Assembly: GCA_023246355.1 (NCBI GenBank)
Contig: JAHFIQ010000005.1
Span: 3,086 to 67,085 of the forward strand
DNA: 64,000 bases
Origin: Candidatus Uhrbacteria bacterium
GTDB taxonomy: Bacteria; Patescibacteriota; Patescibacteriia; UBA9934; GWF2-40-263
Direction: 5' to 3'
Part shown: piece by piece, positions 2,535 through 53,800 of the stretch
Position numbering within the stretch: position 1 is the first letter of the stretch
How the letters are laid out: every line of letters begins with the position of its first letter
Made by a program: the position numbers and the translations under genes
Notes under the pieces: model-generated
What the model saw: the letters and a program-made list of their open reading frames with translations, nothing else
Databases searched by the model: none
What the model was told of the DNA's origin: nothing

Positions 2535-2922
2535 TGGTGGAGCTGGGGAGAATCGAACTCCCGTCTGGAAGGATTCGCACCGTGATGGTTCCAAGTTCAT
2601 TCACGCCTGATACCTTGCCACGCTCAAGGCGTGAAGCAATACGTGACAAGGAGCCGATCGCAACTCTTGAACATGAGAGATCGGTGACCTCATGTTCCAG
2701 CCTGATGATATAACACCCGACTGTTGGTTATCAGACGTCACCAACGCGGATGGCCCTCAGCTTACGCGAGGACAGGGGCAAAAGATGGAACGCGAAATGC
2801 ATTCTTGATCATTGCCATGACGTTGTTTGCAGTTGTCGTCGTGCACGGAAATATTTACGAGCTGCCGTACCGGCTCGACTTGATCACGGATGGTAGGCCT
2901 ACCATCGATACCGATCAGCCCC
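2535..2922 (-). ncRNA. ssrA: tmRNA (SsrA)
   Basis: On the minus strand the 5' end GGGGCUGAUCGGUAUCGAUGG pairs with the 3' end ...GGGAGUUCGAUUCUCCCCAGCUCCACCA. This gives a tRNA-Ala-like acceptor with a G3:U wobble, a T-loop GUUCGAUUC and an encoded CCA. Candidate tag ORF ...AFRVPSFAPVLA-UAA. Lies next to smpB. Confidence 0.8.
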
Positions 2923-46018: not shown

Positions 46019-46905
46019 AGATTGGATTTTATCTGCACGAGATCAGTGAGTGCTCCAATCCCGATCACAAGAGGTCGAAGGGCGTAAATGATCCACGCCT
46101 GCCAGGGCGGACACCACTTAGCAAAGTACCGCGCCATGGAGAGAGAAAACTGTGTTTGCTTCCACCGGGATGATTGTTGCTTGAATGATTGTCCGATCAA
46201 ATCGGTGCAGGAAACAGTGGCATCGTACCAGATACGAAATCCTGCTTGGCGAACGCGTTTGCAAAAGTCGACTTCCTCAAACCAGATAAAAAACGTTTGT
46301 GCATCGAGCACGCCGATCTTTTCCATCACATCACGTCGAAACGCAAAAAACGATCCTCGCACTTGATCGACATTCTGCGAAACGTTGTAGTCGAAATCTT
46401 TTGCCAGATATTGATTCACAACATCGGGAAACAGATGGGGGAGTTTGAGCAGGATGGCGAGCTGATCGCGAAATTGAGGATCACGGCGCACGGAAGCAAC
46501 CACGGATCCCCGTCCGACCTGGTCGTCCGGGCGGGCATTTTCACGAACCAGTTTTACACCCATCACACCGATGTCTTTGTGCGTCGTTAGCGTCTGATAG
46601 GTGTGATCGACCACGTCCTTGCCCATCATCATGTCAGGGTTGAACAGCACGAGCACCTCGCCCTTGGCCATCTTGAGTCCTTGATTGCAGGCATAGGCAA
46701 AACCACGATTGGCATCGTTTTGAATGAGATGCACAGAGGGAAAATACGTTCGAATCATCGTGGCCGTGCCGTCGCTTGATCCGTTATCAATCACAAGCAC
46801 CTCGAATGCTTCACGTGTTTGCATGGAAAACAGATGTGAAAGATTGTCTTTCAGCTGTTCACGGACATTCCAGGAAACGATGATGAGAGAAACCTTCGGT
46901 TGCAT
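46009..46905 (-). CDS. Glycosyltransferase family 2
   Basis: VSLIIVSWNVREQLKDNLSHL...VLVIDNGSSDGT...NRGFAYACNQG. Confidence 0.65.
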   Translation of the reverse strand: MQPKVSLIIVSWNVREQLKDNLSHLFSMQTREAFEVLVIDNGSSDGTATMIRTYFPSVHLIQNDANRGFAYACNQGLKMAKGEVLVLFNPDMMMGKDVVDHTYQTLTTHKDIGVMGVKLVRENARPDDQVGRGSVVASVRRDPQFRDQLAILLKLPHLFPDVVNQYLAKDFDYNVSQNVDQVRGSFFAFRRDVMEKIGVLDAQTFFIWFEEVDFCKRVRQAGFRIWYDATVSCTDLIGQSFKQQSSRWKQTQFSLSMARYFAKWCPPWQAWIIYALRPLVIGIGALTDLVQIKSNLWK

Positions 46906-47100
46906 AACGTGGGCATCTTACGTGTGCATAGAGAGCTTTGTCCACGGTGTATTGACTTTTTCTTCATTTTATGCTATTTTTCTTGTCTGTTCACCCTCAA
47001 GGTTTCAGTGTTGAGTGTGGCGTTTTGAGGCTATTATTGGCCCCAGGCCGCCATTCTCAACAAACAAAGACAAGGTTTACGGGGCGCTCTGTGCGTTCCT

Positions 47101-47931
47101 GTGGGCTGGTCAGAGATGGCTCTGAGGTGTTCTGTGAACGTGTTCATTGACCAGATGGTGGATTTCAAGAATCGTTTCTTCCGGCTCGGTGGGACGATGG
47201 CGCTTTTCCTCAACCTCCTCGGTGATGACGAGCTGATGGAGCACATGATCAAGAGCGCTGAGGAGAAGGCTAACGCCAACCCGTTCGAGCAGACGGTGGA
47301 CGAGCAGATCGCCGCGCTGCGGGCTCAGAATGAGGCTGGCAGCTGGGGCATCACCGAGGACGTGTTCGTCCGGCTCGCGCAGACCGCGCCTGCTTGGCCC
47401 AAGGGTAAGGACGCCTACCGCTCGCTCCGTATCCGTTTCGGCGAGGGGGACGAGGGAGTGGCACTCACCTTCGAACGACATGCTGAGGCCATGAAGCGCG
47501 TCCACGACCCGAAGTTCTGGCGGTGGGAATTGCTTCACTCCGGAACGGTGCCCTATCAGGGCAAGTCGGTCGAGCGCCTGCGGCTCTTGAACGGCAATCA
47601 GAGCCACAAGGCCGTCGTCGAGTGGGTAATCATCAGCGACCTGTCAGCCAACCGCACGCGGAAGGACATCACTTCCGTGCGAAGTGTCCAGTCCCTCGCG
47701 GACGAAGGCCTCGTACTGGCGTGGATGTTCCCGAAGCGGGCGCAGGCGATCGACTACGACAAGTGGTGCGCCTGGTACTGCGGAGGCTACGAGTCAAACG
47801 TCCCCGAGCACGGCGAGGAGTGGCAGCGCGTGGTGGTCGTGGGCCGCGACACCGTTTCCGGTAGGGTCCACCTGCACGCCAGCTGGCGGAGCGGCGACAA
47901 CTCGGGCTACTCCGTTCCTCCCCTCGGGTAG
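47101..47931 (+). CDS. DGR target (variable) protein; C-terminal VR
   Basis: Its last 131 bp (47798..47928) is the VR copy of the TR at 48292..48422. No signal peptide. N-terminus unverified. Confidence 0.6.
   Translation: MGWSEMALRCSVNVFIDQMVDFKNRFFRLGGTMALFLNLLGDDELMEHMIKSAEEKANANPFEQTVDEQIAALRAQNEAGSWGITEDVFVRLAQTAPAWPKGKDAYRSLRIRFGEGDEGVALTFERHAEAMKRVHDPKFWRWELLHSGTVPYQGKSVERLRLLNGNQSHKAVVEWVIISDLSANRTRKDITSVRSVQSLADEGLVLAWMFPKRAQAIDYDKWCAWYCGGYESNVPEHGEEWQRVVVVGRDTVSGRVHLHASWRSGDNSGYSVPPLG
47798..47928 (+). repeat. DGR variable repeat (VR)
   Basis: 131 bp aligned to the TR with 15 substitutions, all opposite TR adenines. Ends 3 nt before the target stop codon. Confidence 0.9.
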
Positions 47932-47951
47932 CGCTCGGAACTTGGCAGCTT

Positions 47952-48010
47952 GGAGCTCGGCAGCCCTTGGACTTCAATCCTTGGTGCTGCCGGCTCCTTT
48001 TCATTTTGTT
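47952..48010 (+). terminator. GC-rich hairpin plus T-tract immediately downstream of VR (terminator / DGR-associated stem-loop)
   Basis: ggagctcggcagc ... gctgccggctcc (12 bp, 1 bulge) followed by ttttcattttg, 20 nt after the stop. Confidence 0.5.
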
Positions 48011-48291
48011 ATAATAGTTTTGGAGAGTAGGCCAGTGCGCCGGTGTTTACGGATGCCGGTCGCCGAAATCTCTTGCAATCCCAATATGCCGTCAGAATCC
48101 AGCCTTCGCTTGAAGGTAGGAGTGTGCGGTGCGGATTGGCGAGCACTCCGCATTTCATTTTGGAACCAGCCTTCGCTGAAGCTACGGCCGGCAGGCCAGT
48201 CGAGCGTGCGAACGGCGAAGGGTTCCGCATAAAATTCAGGGTATGGATGCGTCTGTACCCAGTGTCATGGAAGAATGGAATGTGAAGGGAG

Positions 48292-48422
48292 ACGTCCCCG
48301 AGAACGACGAGGAGTGGCAGAACGTGGTGGTCGTGAACCGCAACACCGATTCCGGTAAGGTCAACCTGAACGCCAACTGGCGGAGCAACGACAACTCGGG
48401 CTACTCCGTTCCTCCCATCGGG
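48292..48422 (+). repeat. DGR template repeat (TR)
   Basis: AAC-rich (at least 9 AAC codons in frame). Invariant partner of the VR. Lies inside a spurious 69-aa ORF. Confidence 0.9.
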
Positions 48423-48466
48423 AGTTCTCATCAAGGCAAAGGGGCGCCATGAAGCGCTCCTTCATG

Positions 48467-48862
48467 CTATCCGACGACTTTCATCCATCCGCCGAGCATC
48501 CTGCCCGTGTCTATCAGTTTTGATTCCATGTTTAGATACTGAACGTTCGTGATGCATTTGCAGTCCTTACACAGCCGTACCAGCAACTTCGTGGTATCGA
48601 CCTTAGCACTCGCTTCTTTTAGTCTGACGAGCTTCTCTGTTGGAATCGACGTCGCGGCGGCACCAAGAAGGAGTTCAAGTATCGAAAGAAGATATCTGGA
48701 ACAGGTTTCGCCAAGCGTATAGCGTTGGGGTTTCGGAAATTTTTTCATCACTTCGTTCCACAGGACATAAGCATCATAAAGCGTATGTACGATTGGAATA
48801 TCGCCAGGTCCTCCGTTCAACAACGTTCGTTCTTCCCGATTGAGTCGGGGGGGGGGTGTCAC
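48467..48862 (-). CDS. avd: Accessory variability determinant (Avd)-like four-helix-bundle protein
   Basis: 131 aa with KFPKPQRYTLG...LGGWMK features of Avd. Divergent from the RT and overlapping its 5' end. Confidence 0.6.
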   Translation of the reverse strand: MTPPPRLNREERTLLNGGPGDIPIVHTLYDAYVLWNEVMKKFPKPQRYTLGETCSRYLLSILELLLGAAATSIPTEKLVRLKEASAKVDTTKLLVRLCKDCKCITNVQYLNMESKLIDTGRMLGGWMKVVG

Positions 48863-49844
48863 TATTCATAAGGCAGAAGCTCGTGATTTATTTGATCGTT
48901 TGGTTTCGATTGAAAATTTGTTTTTGGCGTGGAGACGTTTCTGCAAAGGAAAACGGAGTCGTCATGATGTGATGGTATTCGAACGGAGGCTGGAAGACAA
49001 TCTTTTTGCTATCCGTGAGGAACTTCTTTTCGGATTGTATCAGCACAGTCGGTATGAGCGATTCACCATTCACGATCCGAAAGAGCGAACAATCCACAAA
49101 GCGATCATCAAGGATCGGGTTGTTCACCAAGCTATCGTGAACATTATTGAGCCACTATTCGAGAGAGGTTTCATTTTCGACAGCTTTTCTTGTCGTGTTG
49201 AGAAAGGAACACATGCTGCAGTACGAAGGCTGCGAATGTTTTTGCATCGAGCATCCCAAAACGATACGAAAACGGTCTATGCGCTGAAATGCGATGTGCG
49301 GAAGTTTTTTGACTCTGTAAACCATTTGGTTCTGCTAGAGCTGCTTGCCAAGCGGATTGAAGACCCTGCGACTATCAGGGTCCTTAAAAATATTATCAGT
49401 AGCTTTTCTGTTTTACCTCATACAGGTATTCCGCTTGGGAATCTCACGAGCCAGTTATTTGCAAATATCTATCTTCACGAACTCGACTGGTTCGTGAAAC
49501 AGAAACTTCGTGTCAGATATTATGTCCGTTATTGTGATGATTTTATTATGCTGTCGCTGTCCAAGACAGAAGCAGTGGTTTTGATTGAACAAGTTGACGC
49601 ATTCCTGCAGGAGCGTCTTAAGGTCCAACTCCATCCCAACAAGGTTCACGTTCGCACTTGGACGCAGGGTGTAGACTTTCTTGGTCACGTTCTTCTTCCA
49701 CGAGCAACTATTCTTCGTCCAACAACCGCTCGTCGTGTCATTGAACGTGCTACGAGAGAAAACGCTACGTCTTACCTTGGTTTGTGTGTCCACGCCGATG
49801 CCTACGAAGTCCGTAGAACGATCATGAATAAAACAAACATCTAG
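48840..49844 (+). CDS. DGR reverse transcriptase
   Basis: RT motifs 1-7. YCDD catalytic motif. Motif 4 reads LGNLTSQ (the I/LGxxxSQ DGR hallmark). 334 aa, TTG start. Confidence 0.8.
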   Translation: MSRGGGVTIHKAEARDLFDRLVSIENLFLAWRRFCKGKRSRHDVMVFERRLEDNLFAIREELLFGLYQHSRYERFTIHDPKERTIHKAIIKDRVVHQAIVNIIEPLFERGFIFDSFSCRVEKGTHAAVRRLRMFLHRASQNDTKTVYALKCDVRKFFDSVNHLVLLELLAKRIEDPATIRVLKNIISSFSVLPHTGIPLGNLTSQLFANIYLHELDWFVKQKLRVRYYVRYCDDFIMLSLSKTEAVVLIEQVDAFLQERLKVQLHPNKVHVRTWTQGVDFLGHVLLPRATILRPTTARRVIERATRENATSYLGLCVHADAYEVRRTIMNKTNI

Positions 49845-49856
49845 CTGCTTCAAATG

Positions 49857-49910
49857 CCGTGGCACGTCGTTCCCGCCAAAGGCGGGCGCGGCGCGAACGA
49901 CGTGCCGTGG
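49857..49910 (+). other. Strong compound stem-loop after the RT gene
   Basis: 16-bp outer stem ccgtggcacgtcgttc/gaacgacgtgccgtgg (2 G-U in RNA) enclosing ccgcc-aaa-ggcgg. No U-tract follows. Confidence 0.5.
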
Positions 49911-49925
49911 TATAGTACAACGAGA

Positions 49926-50043
49926 CCTCTGAAAAACTCGATGAGATTGCGATGCGCGGGGAAGCCAGCCTCCGAGACGTCGAAAACTACGTTGAGGAGG
50001 TGGCGGGGCCCCGCAAGTCGCAAGATCGCGAGTTTTGCAGAGG
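49926..50043 (+). repeat. 118-nt long-hairpin repeat element, copy c
   Basis: cctctgaaaaactcg...cgagttttgcagagg terminal stem. About 90% identical to copies a and b. Confidence 0.7.
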
Positions 50044-50057
50044 TCCCAATCGTTTTT

Positions 50058-51227
50058 ATGGACAAGGCTCACCTCACCATCGCCCATGTGGTCTGCACCT
50101 ATCCACCGTATCGCGGAGGGATGGGGAATGTTGCGCATGAATATGTCGAGCGACTCAGAGCTCGGGGCTACAACGTGCACGTGTTTACCATTCAAGATAC
50201 AGAAATAGATGATGACCCGCGCTATGTGCACCGCATTCCCGGCATCATCCAAATTGGAAATGCCGGAGTATTACCGTCGCTATTTCATCGCCTGTCTGGT
50301 TTTGATCTGGTTCATCTTCACTATCCTTTTTTTGGCGGCGCAGAACCGGTCATTGTGAGAAAAGCCATGACGCAGGATCAAGGACTTGTCATGACCTATC
50401 ACATGGATAATTTCGGTGCAGGTGTCAAAGGCGCGCTGTTCAGTGCCCATCGTCGCCTGTTATTTCCGTGGCTCGTGAATCGCGTGGACAGAATTTTGGT
50501 GAGCTCCATGGATTATGCCAAACATTGTGCGCTGGCTGAATTGGATGTGATGGACAGAATCGAAGAACATCCCTTTGGCGTGGATCTGGAGCGGTTTCAT
50601 TCAGGCGTGGAGCAGGAGTTGCGTGTGCGTCACCACATCAAACAAGACGTACCCGTTTTGTTGTTTGTGGGTGGGCTTGATGCCGCGCATGAGTTCAAAG
50701 GACTTTCCGTTTTGTTTGAGTCACTCAGTCATCTTTTGAATCAAGAGTGGCATCTGGTGATCGTCGGGGACGGGGCACTCAAGGAAACGTATCGAGAACA
50801 GGCACGCGAGAGAGGGCTCGGCGATCGTGTGACGTTTGCAGGAGCTGTCTCGCAGGATGATCTCCCGCGTTATTACCGTCTGGCGACGGTGCACCTGTTT
50901 CCTTCAACAAAACGCGCGGAGTCCTTTGGATTAGTCGCCCTGGAAGCTGCTGCCTCTGGAATTCCTTCCATCGCGTCAGATCTTCCGGGCGTCAGAACCG
51001 TTGTGCGTGACGGAGATACGGGACTGCTCGTTTCGCCTGGGGATGTTGAGTCACTGAAAAAAGCCATCCTCACCCTGCTTGAACAACCAGACTTGCGATC
51101 ACGCCTTGGTCTTTCAGCGCGAGTGAATGCACAGGCGCACTATCACTGGGAGCCGCTCATAGATCGACTGGAGGCGACGTATGATTCTGTCTTGGGGCAG
51201 CAAGCAAAGCGTCACTATCGAGTATGA
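50058..51227 (+). CDS. Glycosyltransferase family 4
   Basis: Start MDKAHLTIAHVVCTYPPYRGGMGN. GT4 C-terminal domain ESFGLVALEAAASGIPSIASDLPG. Confidence 0.7.
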   Translation: MDKAHLTIAHVVCTYPPYRGGMGNVAHEYVERLRARGYNVHVFTIQDTEIDDDPRYVHRIPGIIQIGNAGVLPSLFHRLSGFDLVHLHYPFFGGAEPVIVRKAMTQDQGLVMTYHMDNFGAGVKGALFSAHRRLLFPWLVNRVDRILVSSMDYAKHCALAELDVMDRIEEHPFGVDLERFHSGVEQELRVRHHIKQDVPVLLFVGGLDAAHEFKGLSVLFESLSHLLNQEWHLVIVGDGALKETYREQARERGLGDRVTFAGAVSQDDLPRYYRLATVHLFPSTKRAESFGLVALEAAASGIPSIASDLPGVRTVVRDGDTGLLVSPGDVESLKKAILTLLEQPDLRSRLGLSARVNAQAHYHWEPLIDRLEATYDSVLGQQAKRHYRV

Positions 51228-52900: not shown

Positions 52901-53800
52901 TCACTTTCCTCTGCTTATTCTTCCTACCACAGATCGGTCGATACCAACAAGCTTAGCGATTTCTGTCGTTAAATATCCGCATCGCAACCGAGCAAAAACA
53001 ATCCCTTCGTTTCGTTTAGTCTTTGTCGTGGCGTCGGCAAAAATTTCCTCAAGAGTCGGTCGACCAACGATCCGTTCTTCTCGACGGTACTCCTTGAGTT
53101 CCTCTACTCCATTCGTTTTCTCCCAAATCCAACTCACGAATTGAGGACTGCCTAAGAGGAAACCGTTTGAAACGTCATCGTAAGGGTTTCTTGCATCAGA
53201 CCCTTCATCGACAAACTGTCGGTACTCTTGCTGGGCTTCCTGTTTTTTTTTCGAAAAATGAGTCAGGAGCCAATCTACGCGCAGCCACTCAGGCGAGGTG
53301 GACGCACCACAGGTTGCACGATAACTACTCCATTTCCATTCTTTTGGGTGTTTTACAAGGTGAGCGCGAACAGGATTCAAAACGATATAACGAGCCACTT
53401 CCAGAAGGTATGTCTCTTTTTCAATGACGAACGCCTTGTATCTACCTTGGAAGAGGTGTCCGACACGTCCGTGTACTGCGTTAAACCACTGAGAGTAGTT
53501 TCCGTTGAGATCTCGCATGGCAATCGCAAGGTTTGCGTCGAGTGTCTCCAAAAGCAAGTGATAGTGGTTTCCCATGAGACAATACGCGTGGCACAGGAGG
53601 TTATGTGTCTTACAAGTATCCTGAAGCCATCTCAAAAATCGACGTCGGTCATGATCGGTCAAAAAAATATCTTGTTTGGCGTTTCCTCGAGCAATGACGT
53701 GATAGAGCGCACCTGGATATTCAATACGTAAAGGTCTTGACATAGATTTTTTAATGATTTGTTTAGTTTCTTCTGGGAACATAAAACCCCCAAAATTCAA
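52901..53800 (-). CDS. REP-associated tyrosine transposase (RAYT; IS200/Y1 HUH family)
   Basis: YHVIARGN...HAYCLMGNHYHLLLE (HuH)...GHLFQGRYKA (catalytic Tyr region). True start is probably MSRPLRIEYPG. Confidence 0.7.
   Translation of the reverse strand: MNFGGFMFPEETKQIIKKSMSRPLRIEYPGALYHVIARGNAKQDIFLTDHDRRRFLRWLQDTCKTHNLLCHAYCLMGNHYHLLLETLDANLAIAMRDLNGNYSQWFNAVHGRVGHLFQGRYKAFVIEKETYLLEVARYIVLNPVRAHLVKHPKEWKWSSYRATCGASTSPEWLRVDWLLTHFSKKKQEAQQEYRQFVDEGSDARNPYDDVSNGFLLGSPQFVSWIWEKTNGVEELKEYRREERIVGRPTLEEIFADATTKTKRNEGIVFARLRCGYLTTEIAKLVGIDRSVVGRISRGK

Follow-up and report, generated by a model that had tools for sequence, protein, structure and literature searches.

Gene content of the locus

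The DNA analysed here, referred to as the window, is a 64-kb stretch of contig JAHFIQ010000005.1 from a Candidatus Uhrbacteria bacterium. On its plus strand it carries a 334-aa open reading frame (ORF) that the initial annotation identified as the reverse transcriptase (RT) of a diversity-generating retroelement (DGR). The sequence evidence leaves little doubt that this ORF is the RT of a complete chromosomal DGR in a Patescibacteria (Uhrbacteria-like) genome, with a target gene containing a variable repeat (VR), a template repeat (TR), an avd gene on the opposite strand and the RT gene, in that order. Such an RT and such a DGR are ordinary for candidate phyla radiation (CPR) bacteria, and the layout is a published one, as described in two surveys (PMC5758913; PMC8144416). 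The main interest of the locus is a slippery repeat common to avd and the RT gene and, secondarily, an element of pentamers and a hairpin flanking the VR. The cassette contains the following features:

47134–47931, plus strand: target gene of the DGR, coding for the variable protein (265 aa); its ORF is open from GTG 47101
47798–47928, plus strand: variable repeat (VR), which supplies the final 43 codons to the target gene and forms a direct repeat with the TR
47934–47997, plus strand: VR-flank element; six CTYGR pentamers (47934–47983), an overlapping hairpin (47952–47997), then a T-rich run
48292–48422, plus strand: template repeat (TR), 131 nt with 32 adenines and 9 AAC codons
48467–48862, minus strand: avd (accessory variability determinant), 131 aa from GTG 48862 in the G10 allele
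48847–48856, no strand assigned: G10 homopolymer (C10 on the avd strand), located where the RT and avd ORFs overlap head-to-head by 23 nt
48840–49844, plus strand: reverse transcriptase of the DGR; in the G10 allele, 334 aa with TTG 48840 as its start

The reverse transcriptase

The translated RT ORF contains the motifs KFFDSVNH, GIPLGNLTSQLFANIYL and YVRYCDDFIML. The TTG start, FFDSVNH, LGNLTSQ and YVRYCDDFIML of the initial annotation were thus all recovered from the sequence. One detail of that annotation was in error: the TTG does not directly follow the G10 run, which begins 7 nt past it and lies inside the ORF, where it supplies codons 3–6 (cGG GGG GGG GGt, encoding R-G-G-G). The key residues are R83, D152, the LGNLTSQ motif at 199–205 (L199-G-N-L-T-S204-Q205) and Y231-C-D-D234. 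RVT_1 was the only Pfam domain found in the ORF (E 4e-21, residues 83–284), and the predicted lack of maturase/X and endonuclease domains was borne out by this search.

Among all PDB sequences, the top relative of the RT is the Bordetella phage bRT (8ub7; E 1.9e-46, 162 bits), with 33% identity over 289 alignment columns. The group II RT GsI-IIC (6ar1) scored 78 bits (E 8e-21) and 'retron-type' RTs scored 71–74 bits in the same search. Residues R74, I181, S186, Q187 and YMDD of bRT pair with R83, L199, S204, Q205 and YCDD of the present enzyme. In bRT, R74 and I181, the latter being the first residue of [I/V/L]GxxxSQ, promote adenine mutagenesis (PMC7826257). The [I/V/L]GxxxSQ motif is the DGR signature, while group II and retroviral RTs have QGxxxSP (PMC7826257), in agreement with the motif-4 argument on which the DGR assignment was originally based. 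The RT also matched PHROG 1423 (E 6e-103). YCDD is present in 118 and LGxxxSQ in 119 of the 120 closest RT homologues; the two motifs are the norm of the clade and not an oddity of this ORF.

Public gene callers place the RT start at M45 (48972–49844; 290/291 aa). However, the alignment with bRT starts at residue 14 and RT homologues are 320–350 aa long, so a start upstream of M45 is more plausible.

It is extremely improbable that the enzyme belongs instead to a group II intron, a retron or a defence-associated RT system (DRT/Abi). Such an origin could be read from generic matches to the NCBIfam group II RT/maturase model TIGR04416 (146 bits), to Drt3a, Drt2 and retron models and to the UG/DRT models of PADLOC, and also from several database records in which homologues are labelled 'group II intron' or 'retron-type' RT. 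However, the NCBIfam retron and DRT models matched the RT core only and far under their curated cutoffs. Similarly, TIGR04416 matched with its RT part only (model positions 23–278 of 353), at less than half its cutoff of 300 bits and with the maturase region not covered. The best PADLOC match was a generic RT model. The score against bRT is twice that of any group II RT. The features that the initial annotation had named as contrary to a DGR, a maturase or an intron or retron RNA, were looked for and found by none of Pfam, NCBIfam and Rfam; the Rfam search for group II intron and retron RNAs covered the whole window at gathering score and 46500–51000 at E ≤ 1. The SQ motif, the TR/VR pair and the adjacent Avd are all present, and together with the closeness to bRT they uphold the assignment as a DGR RT.

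Target gene, repeats and avd

A direct repeat of 131 nt with 89% identity joins 47798–47928 and 48292–48422. Because the upstream copy makes up the final 43 codons of the 265-aa ORF, it is the VR, and the downstream copy is the TR. All 15 mismatches between the two fall at TR adenines, although adenines occupy only 32 of the 131 positions (24%), a distribution with a chance of about 6e-10. These differences cause 12 amino-acid changes. Since the TR/VR differences are purely adenine-specific, past adenine mutagenesis is proven. The TR adenines are placed at first (13) and second (18) codon positions and never at third positions, a design with 21 variable codons and about 2e18 possible proteins. 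The final 35 nt of VR and TR differ at one adenine only, and the initiation of mutagenic homing (IMH) site is not separable there. No second VR was found when both strands of the window were scanned with the TR, any base being permitted at TR adenines. In one assembly of the same region (ERZ27280214; L087 position ~200, window 48303), a T stands in place of one of the TR adenines; the VR base at this site is C. A junction from the TR to the 3' flank of the VR on one contig (L002) was considered and dismissed as an assembly cross-over at the repeat.

The target protein matched no Pfam, NCBIfam, PHROG or PADLOC family. Its 191 homologues are all 'hypothetical' and mostly from Patescibacteria, and in the family alignment the unconserved C-terminal columns coincide with the adenine-containing TR codons. 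An AlphaFold model (49 sequences; predicted local distance difference test 95) consists of a helical N-terminal part and a C-terminal alpha/beta domain that contains the VR. Foldseek and sequence searches of the PDB gave nothing for the target fold. In the model, a predicted strand has variable residues at every second position (246, 248 and 250), as would be expected of a single exposed face.

The Avd protein matched Pfam bAvd at 47.3 bits (cutoff 40) and PHROG 3206, 'Avd protein of DGR', at E 3.8e-16. No match to Avd was found among PDB sequences, so its identification rests on hidden Markov model libraries. Between the TR end and the avd stop codon lies a small GC-rich hairpin (48436–48467, z −2.2), which could serve as a terminator in both directions or belong to the DGR RNA 3' of the TR. 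Within the cassette region (47000–49750), G+C is about 64% in the target gene and 44–45% in the RT gene, against about 50% in the surroundings.

Public gene calls are systematically off at this locus. The TR is annotated as a protein of 56–69 aa, avd is missed in several assemblies and the RT is cut to M45. The 69-aa ORF called by some pipelines at 48243–48452 is the TR read in the VR frame and not a gene.

Position and conservation of the G-tract

The G10 homopolymer is the only G/C run of 7 nt or more in the window. RT, avd, target and TR/VR were located by script in 80 related Patescibacteria loci, where the order target(VR,+)–TR(+)–avd(−)–RT(+) was seen wherever the parts were detected, with a TR/VR adenine bias of 0.8–1.0. 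Of 81 loci, 48 have a tract of G8–G15 at the avd/RT junction; the remaining 595 kb contains just 3 G/C runs of 8 nt or more. The most frequent tract lengths are 10 (17 loci), 9 (15 loci) and 11 (8 loci), followed by 8 (4 loci), 12 (3 loci) and 15 (1 locus). What is conserved is the tract and its position, because the flanks are often unalignable. At four loci (L024, L026, L065 and L080) a (TC)n or (GT)n repeat stands in place of the G run. In three loci with no avd detected between TR and RT (L048, L051 and L066), the tract is kept right after the RT ATG. One sub-clade is without a repeat; there the avd and RT starts abut (TTCAT followed directly by ATG), and the RT begins M-I-I-H-K-D-L-F and the Avd M-N-Q-N-D-V-P. 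Since these tract-less relatives are without GGG/PPP leaders, the leaders are dispensable.

On the avd strand, an ATG with an open path is found within 30 nt beyond the tract in 31 of 35 loci, compared with 31% at random positions. The frame of the avd core is open as far as the tract in all 31 of 31 loci, and a canonical start between tract and avd core is lacking in about half of the loci. Only about one-third of assemblies have the closest far-side avd ATG in frame. In one subgroup, the tract sits between TTGxxx and TAACAT hexamers 14–17 nt apart. At the avd/RT junction of the window itself, a consensus promoter scan gave no sigma-70-like site.

Nothing that links DGRs to homopolymeric or phase-variable repeats was found in the literature searched, of which Paul et al. 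2017 was not a part. The G-tract is also unmentioned in the accessible parts of Wu et al. 2018 (PMC5758913) and Roux et al. 2021 (PMC8144416).

Length alleles and reading frames

Tract lengths were compared among contigs with identical encoded RT and identical flanks, all of them consensus assemblies. The length differs between otherwise identical contigs in six of six populations, that of the window included. The alleles in the other populations are:

P0076: G9 in six contigs, G10 in four
P0086: G9 in one contig, G10 in six, G11 in two
P0094: G10 in three contigs, G9 in two
P0058: G10 in two contigs, G9 in two
P0095: G9 in three contigs, G8 in three

The two tract lengths of P0094 co-segregate with three single-nucleotide polymorphisms (SNPs). 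In P0058 and P0095, the tract indel is the sole variable column in 2.4 kb. Three more contigs of the P0086 element end at the tract. Gene calls for avd differ with the alleles: in P0095, avd is called with G8 (a 140-aa protein starting at the ATG in 'TAACAT') but not with G9, while in P0086 G11 gives a 129-aa protein and G10 a 110-aa internal-start call. For the element of the window, the six loci with DNA are all G10, and one contig has a 133-aa avd and a 1-nt shift. The avd predicted for a G9 allele (ATG 48869, MNSDTPPR..., 133 aa) was confirmed by exact look-up as protein P0244, which is found on contigs of 77,483 nt and 4,857 nt, each 1 nt under its G10 counterpart.

Tract length fixes the frame between the far-side ATG of avd and the avd core. 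The starts available in the window for tracts of n nucleotides are:

n = 1 mod 3 (G10): RT start TTG 48840; avd start GTG 48862
n = 0 mod 3 (G9): RT start ATG 62 nt upstream of the tract; avd start ATG 48869
n = 2 mod 3: no in-frame start beyond the tract for RT; none beyond the tract for avd

The shared frame need of the RT and avd far-side ATGs was discarded as evidence, being a geometric result of antisense in-frame His codons. Two other roles for the tract were also rejected. As a mimic of the RT Shine-Dalgarno sequence, poly-G would stand at an inconsistent gap from the next in-frame start (8 to >35 nt, or no start at all), and as a cDNA priming site it would lie at a TR–tract distance that varies from about 80 to about 425 nt.

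The tract as a probable switch

The tract is probably a slipped-strand switch of DGR activity. Its length would regulate avd, in many elements also RT, and hence the DGR as a whole. In its general form, this reading holds that most CPR DGRs have avd and RT head-to-head over a hypermutable repeat, usually G8–G15. Slippage would shift avd, and often RT, relative to the far-side starts, giving a stochastic, heritable hypermutation that is on, low or off, with most cells off. The sequence comparisons put this general form at an even chance. In the subgroup with TTGxxx and TAACAT, tract length could additionally tune an RT promoter. Some points qualify this reading. Internal starts may supply some Avd in the off state, the states could be blurred by transcriptional or ribosomal slippage on the C-runs, and part of the length differences between the assemblies compared may come from homopolymer consensus errors.

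The competing view, which is possible but somewhat doubtful, is that the tract is not a switch. Its length differences would then stem from Illumina homopolymer errors, or the tract would have a length-tolerant role, whether as a promoter spacer, an RNA element of the TR–RT transcript, a Gly3/Pro3 leader or a site where transcriptional or ribosomal slippage keeps expression robust to length. Long G runs are indeed error-prone, the lengths reported here come from assemblies and not from reads, and assemblies possibly made from the same data differ by 1 nt in some cases. However, a sequencing artefact cannot be the source of tract conservation in 48 of 81 loci, and given lengths recur in independent assemblies, where they co-segregate with strain SNPs or VR alleles. 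The two populations in which the tract alone varies across 2.4 kb also speak against the competing view. In its favour, the one-third of assemblies with the far-side avd ATG in frame is the chance level if that ATG is not a start, two of the three frame states in the window still provide start codons, and the hexamer spacing in the one subgroup is promoter-spacer-like. Against it, the (TC)n/(GT)n repeats at four loci argue for selection on mutability and not on a G-specific sequence, the tract-less relatives show that the encoded Gly/Pro are dispensable, and an ATG lies beyond the tract in 31 of 35 loci, far above its frequency at random positions.

Mechanism and activity of the element

By analogy with the DGR of Bordetella phage BPP-1 (PMC7826257; PMC3240598), the plus strand would be transcribed through the TR with its 3' flank, which is here antisense avd. 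The RT with Avd would then copy the TR RNA to cDNA, misincorporating opposite template adenines, and the cDNA would replace the VR, thereby rewriting up to 21 C-terminal codons of the 265-aa target. The target may display the variable residues on a C-type-lectin-like domain, and its ligand binding would be diversified.

Several observations weigh against a complete element that is at work today. The NCBIfam model DivGenRetAVD matched Avd at 67.3 bits, under its curated cutoff of 80. In the G10 allele, the starts of RT (TTG) and avd (GTG) are both non-ATG and dependent on tract length. Exact-protein look-ups gave no VR variant of the window's element, the identical target protein being found on 9 contigs from at least 5 samples, and the 90% cluster of the target protein likewise contained no VR variant.

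The element might be a DGR of past activity that has fallen silent in the populations sampled, either a relic or switched low, with TR/VR differences that record past events only. This is considered rather unlikely. It agrees with a VR that is identical in every assembly found and with a dominant G10 allele that offers only TTG and GTG starts; also, according to one survey, CPR DGRs have a slower amino-acid turnover than phage DGRs (PMC8144416). However, the catalytic and signature residues of the RT are all intact, as is the TR with its optimal AAC design, and avd, the hairpin and the pentamer array are all conserved. Exact-protein look-ups, moreover, favour the finding of identical VRs. A sister population, the P0086 element (L099–L103), has two VR alleles with 10 and 23 adenine-site differences and a 3-nt indel over identical TR and RT, which indicates that the clade is active in nature. 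These two VR alleles differ in their tract too (G10 vs G9/G11).

The VR-flank element

The hairpin at 47952–47997 starts 24 nt past the VR and has a fold z-score of −3.5. The same hairpin was found in 10 of 10 close loci that were folded. It has a constant core of CTTGG, a short stem-loop and CCTTGG, and an outer stem that covaries, with compensatory changes in 8 of 11 pairs. No equivalent hairpin follows the TR. Similarly, CTYGR pentamers occur at 2.97 per 85 nt after VRs, compared with 0.36 after TRs and 0.43 in the background (70 VRs). The VR-specific hairpin and CTYGR array probably mark the VR as the acceptor. By its resemblance to the IMH-plus-cruciform arrangement of BPP-1, the VR-flank element is a plausible candidate for a target-recognition element, which may double as a terminator. 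The CTYGR array is unmentioned in the accessible parts of Wu et al. (PMC5758913), which deal with IMH and inverted repeats, and in those of PMC8144416. The literature searched, of which Paul et al. 2017 was not a part, gave nothing relevant on a CTTGG-type flank element in DGRs.

Relatives and genomic setting

Homologues of the RT number in the thousands, and the closest are from metagenome-assembled genomes (MAGs) of Candidatus Uhrbacteria and other Patescibacteria. The nearest target homologues are likewise from Uhrbacteria/Patescibacteria MAGs. According to Wu et al. 2018 (PMC5758913), architecture B3, 'TR-(avd)-RT', accounts for 90% of CPR DGRs. DGR clade 2 is described by Roux et al. 2021 (PMC8144416) as restricted to Patescibacteria, with targets that have no recognisable domains. 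The cassette has architecture B3 and fits clade 2, and the nearest homologues suggest the host lineage. It is therefore a further member of a described sub-type. The neighbouring genes are glycosyltransferases and the window contains a tmRNA gene, so the element is chromosomal. Two further features belong to the cassette region:

46952–46980, plus strand: weak candidate for a sigma-70-like promoter, upstream of the target gene (TTGACT-17-TATTTT; TG precedes the second hexamer), from a consensus scan only
49854–49913, plus strand: inverted repeat (arms of 24 nt) that follows immediately on the RT stop codon; no T-run, z −3.45

The inverted repeat may delimit the cassette at its 3' end or may be a terminator-like structure. 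One assembly of this element, 13.5 kb long (ERZ27296333), has other genes (DUF4178, minus strand) soon downstream of 49854–49913; this difference could reflect a cassette boundary, a strain rearrangement or a chimera. A 299-aa ORF on the minus strand (52901–53800), 3 kb downstream of the DGR, has an IS200-like Y1 transposase domain (Pfam Y1_Tnp, E 3.8e-12). The tmRNA gene (2535–2922, minus strand; Rfam 123 bits) has the tag peptide ANNVMAMIKNAFRVPSFAPVLA and is the sole Rfam match of the window at gathering score.

Significance and comparison with known systems

The RT call adds one CPR DGR to the thousands known, and the target family of about 190 'hypothetical' proteins gains a confident structural model. 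A conserved contingency repeat at avd/RT, if true, would offer a simple account of how DGR mutagenesis is controlled in cells of the largest cellular clade of these elements. At such loci, annotation pipelines overlook avd or call it wrongly, shorten the RT and report the TR as a gene, and contigs break at the tract. Also, the CTYGR array and covarying hairpin could be of use in predicting DGR acceptor sites and in re-targeting elements of this kind.

The element has much in common with the BPP-1 DGR (mtd-avd-TR-brt). The RTs are homologous and share R74/R83 and I/L-GxxxSQ, Avd is present and the VR is at the 3' end of the target ORF. The TR, about 90% identical to the VR, has AAC codons and differs from it at adenines only, and downstream of the VR, but not of the TR, lies a GC-rich hairpin. 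In contrast to BPP-1, avd is here on the opposite strand between TR and RT, so that antisense avd makes up the RNA 3' of the TR. The element is chromosomal and not phage-borne, has YCDD instead of YMDD and a target without detectable similarity to Mtd, and carries a pentamer array flanking the VR and a G-tract at the avd/RT junction. Compared with the CPR DGRs of type B3 and clade 2, nothing essential differs; the order and orientation, the domain-less target and the YCDD/LGxxxSQ norm are the same. With group II intron RTs such as GsI-IIC (6ar1), the enzyme has the RT fingers/palm core in common, but it has SQ and not SP, no maturase/X or endonuclease domain and no intron RNA, and its scores to them are half those to bRT.

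Simple sequence repeat (SSR) contingency loci of bacteria include the poly-G/C tracts in genes of Neisseria and Campylobacter and in fim and other genes of Bordetella. The present tract is like these in being G8–G15 located just after a start codon or in a promoter region, where changes of ±1 nt shift the frame. Unlike them, it lies in the antisense overlap of two divergent genes and sets both frames. The function that it would gate is a mutagenesis machine, and its hosts are uncultivated CPR bacteria.

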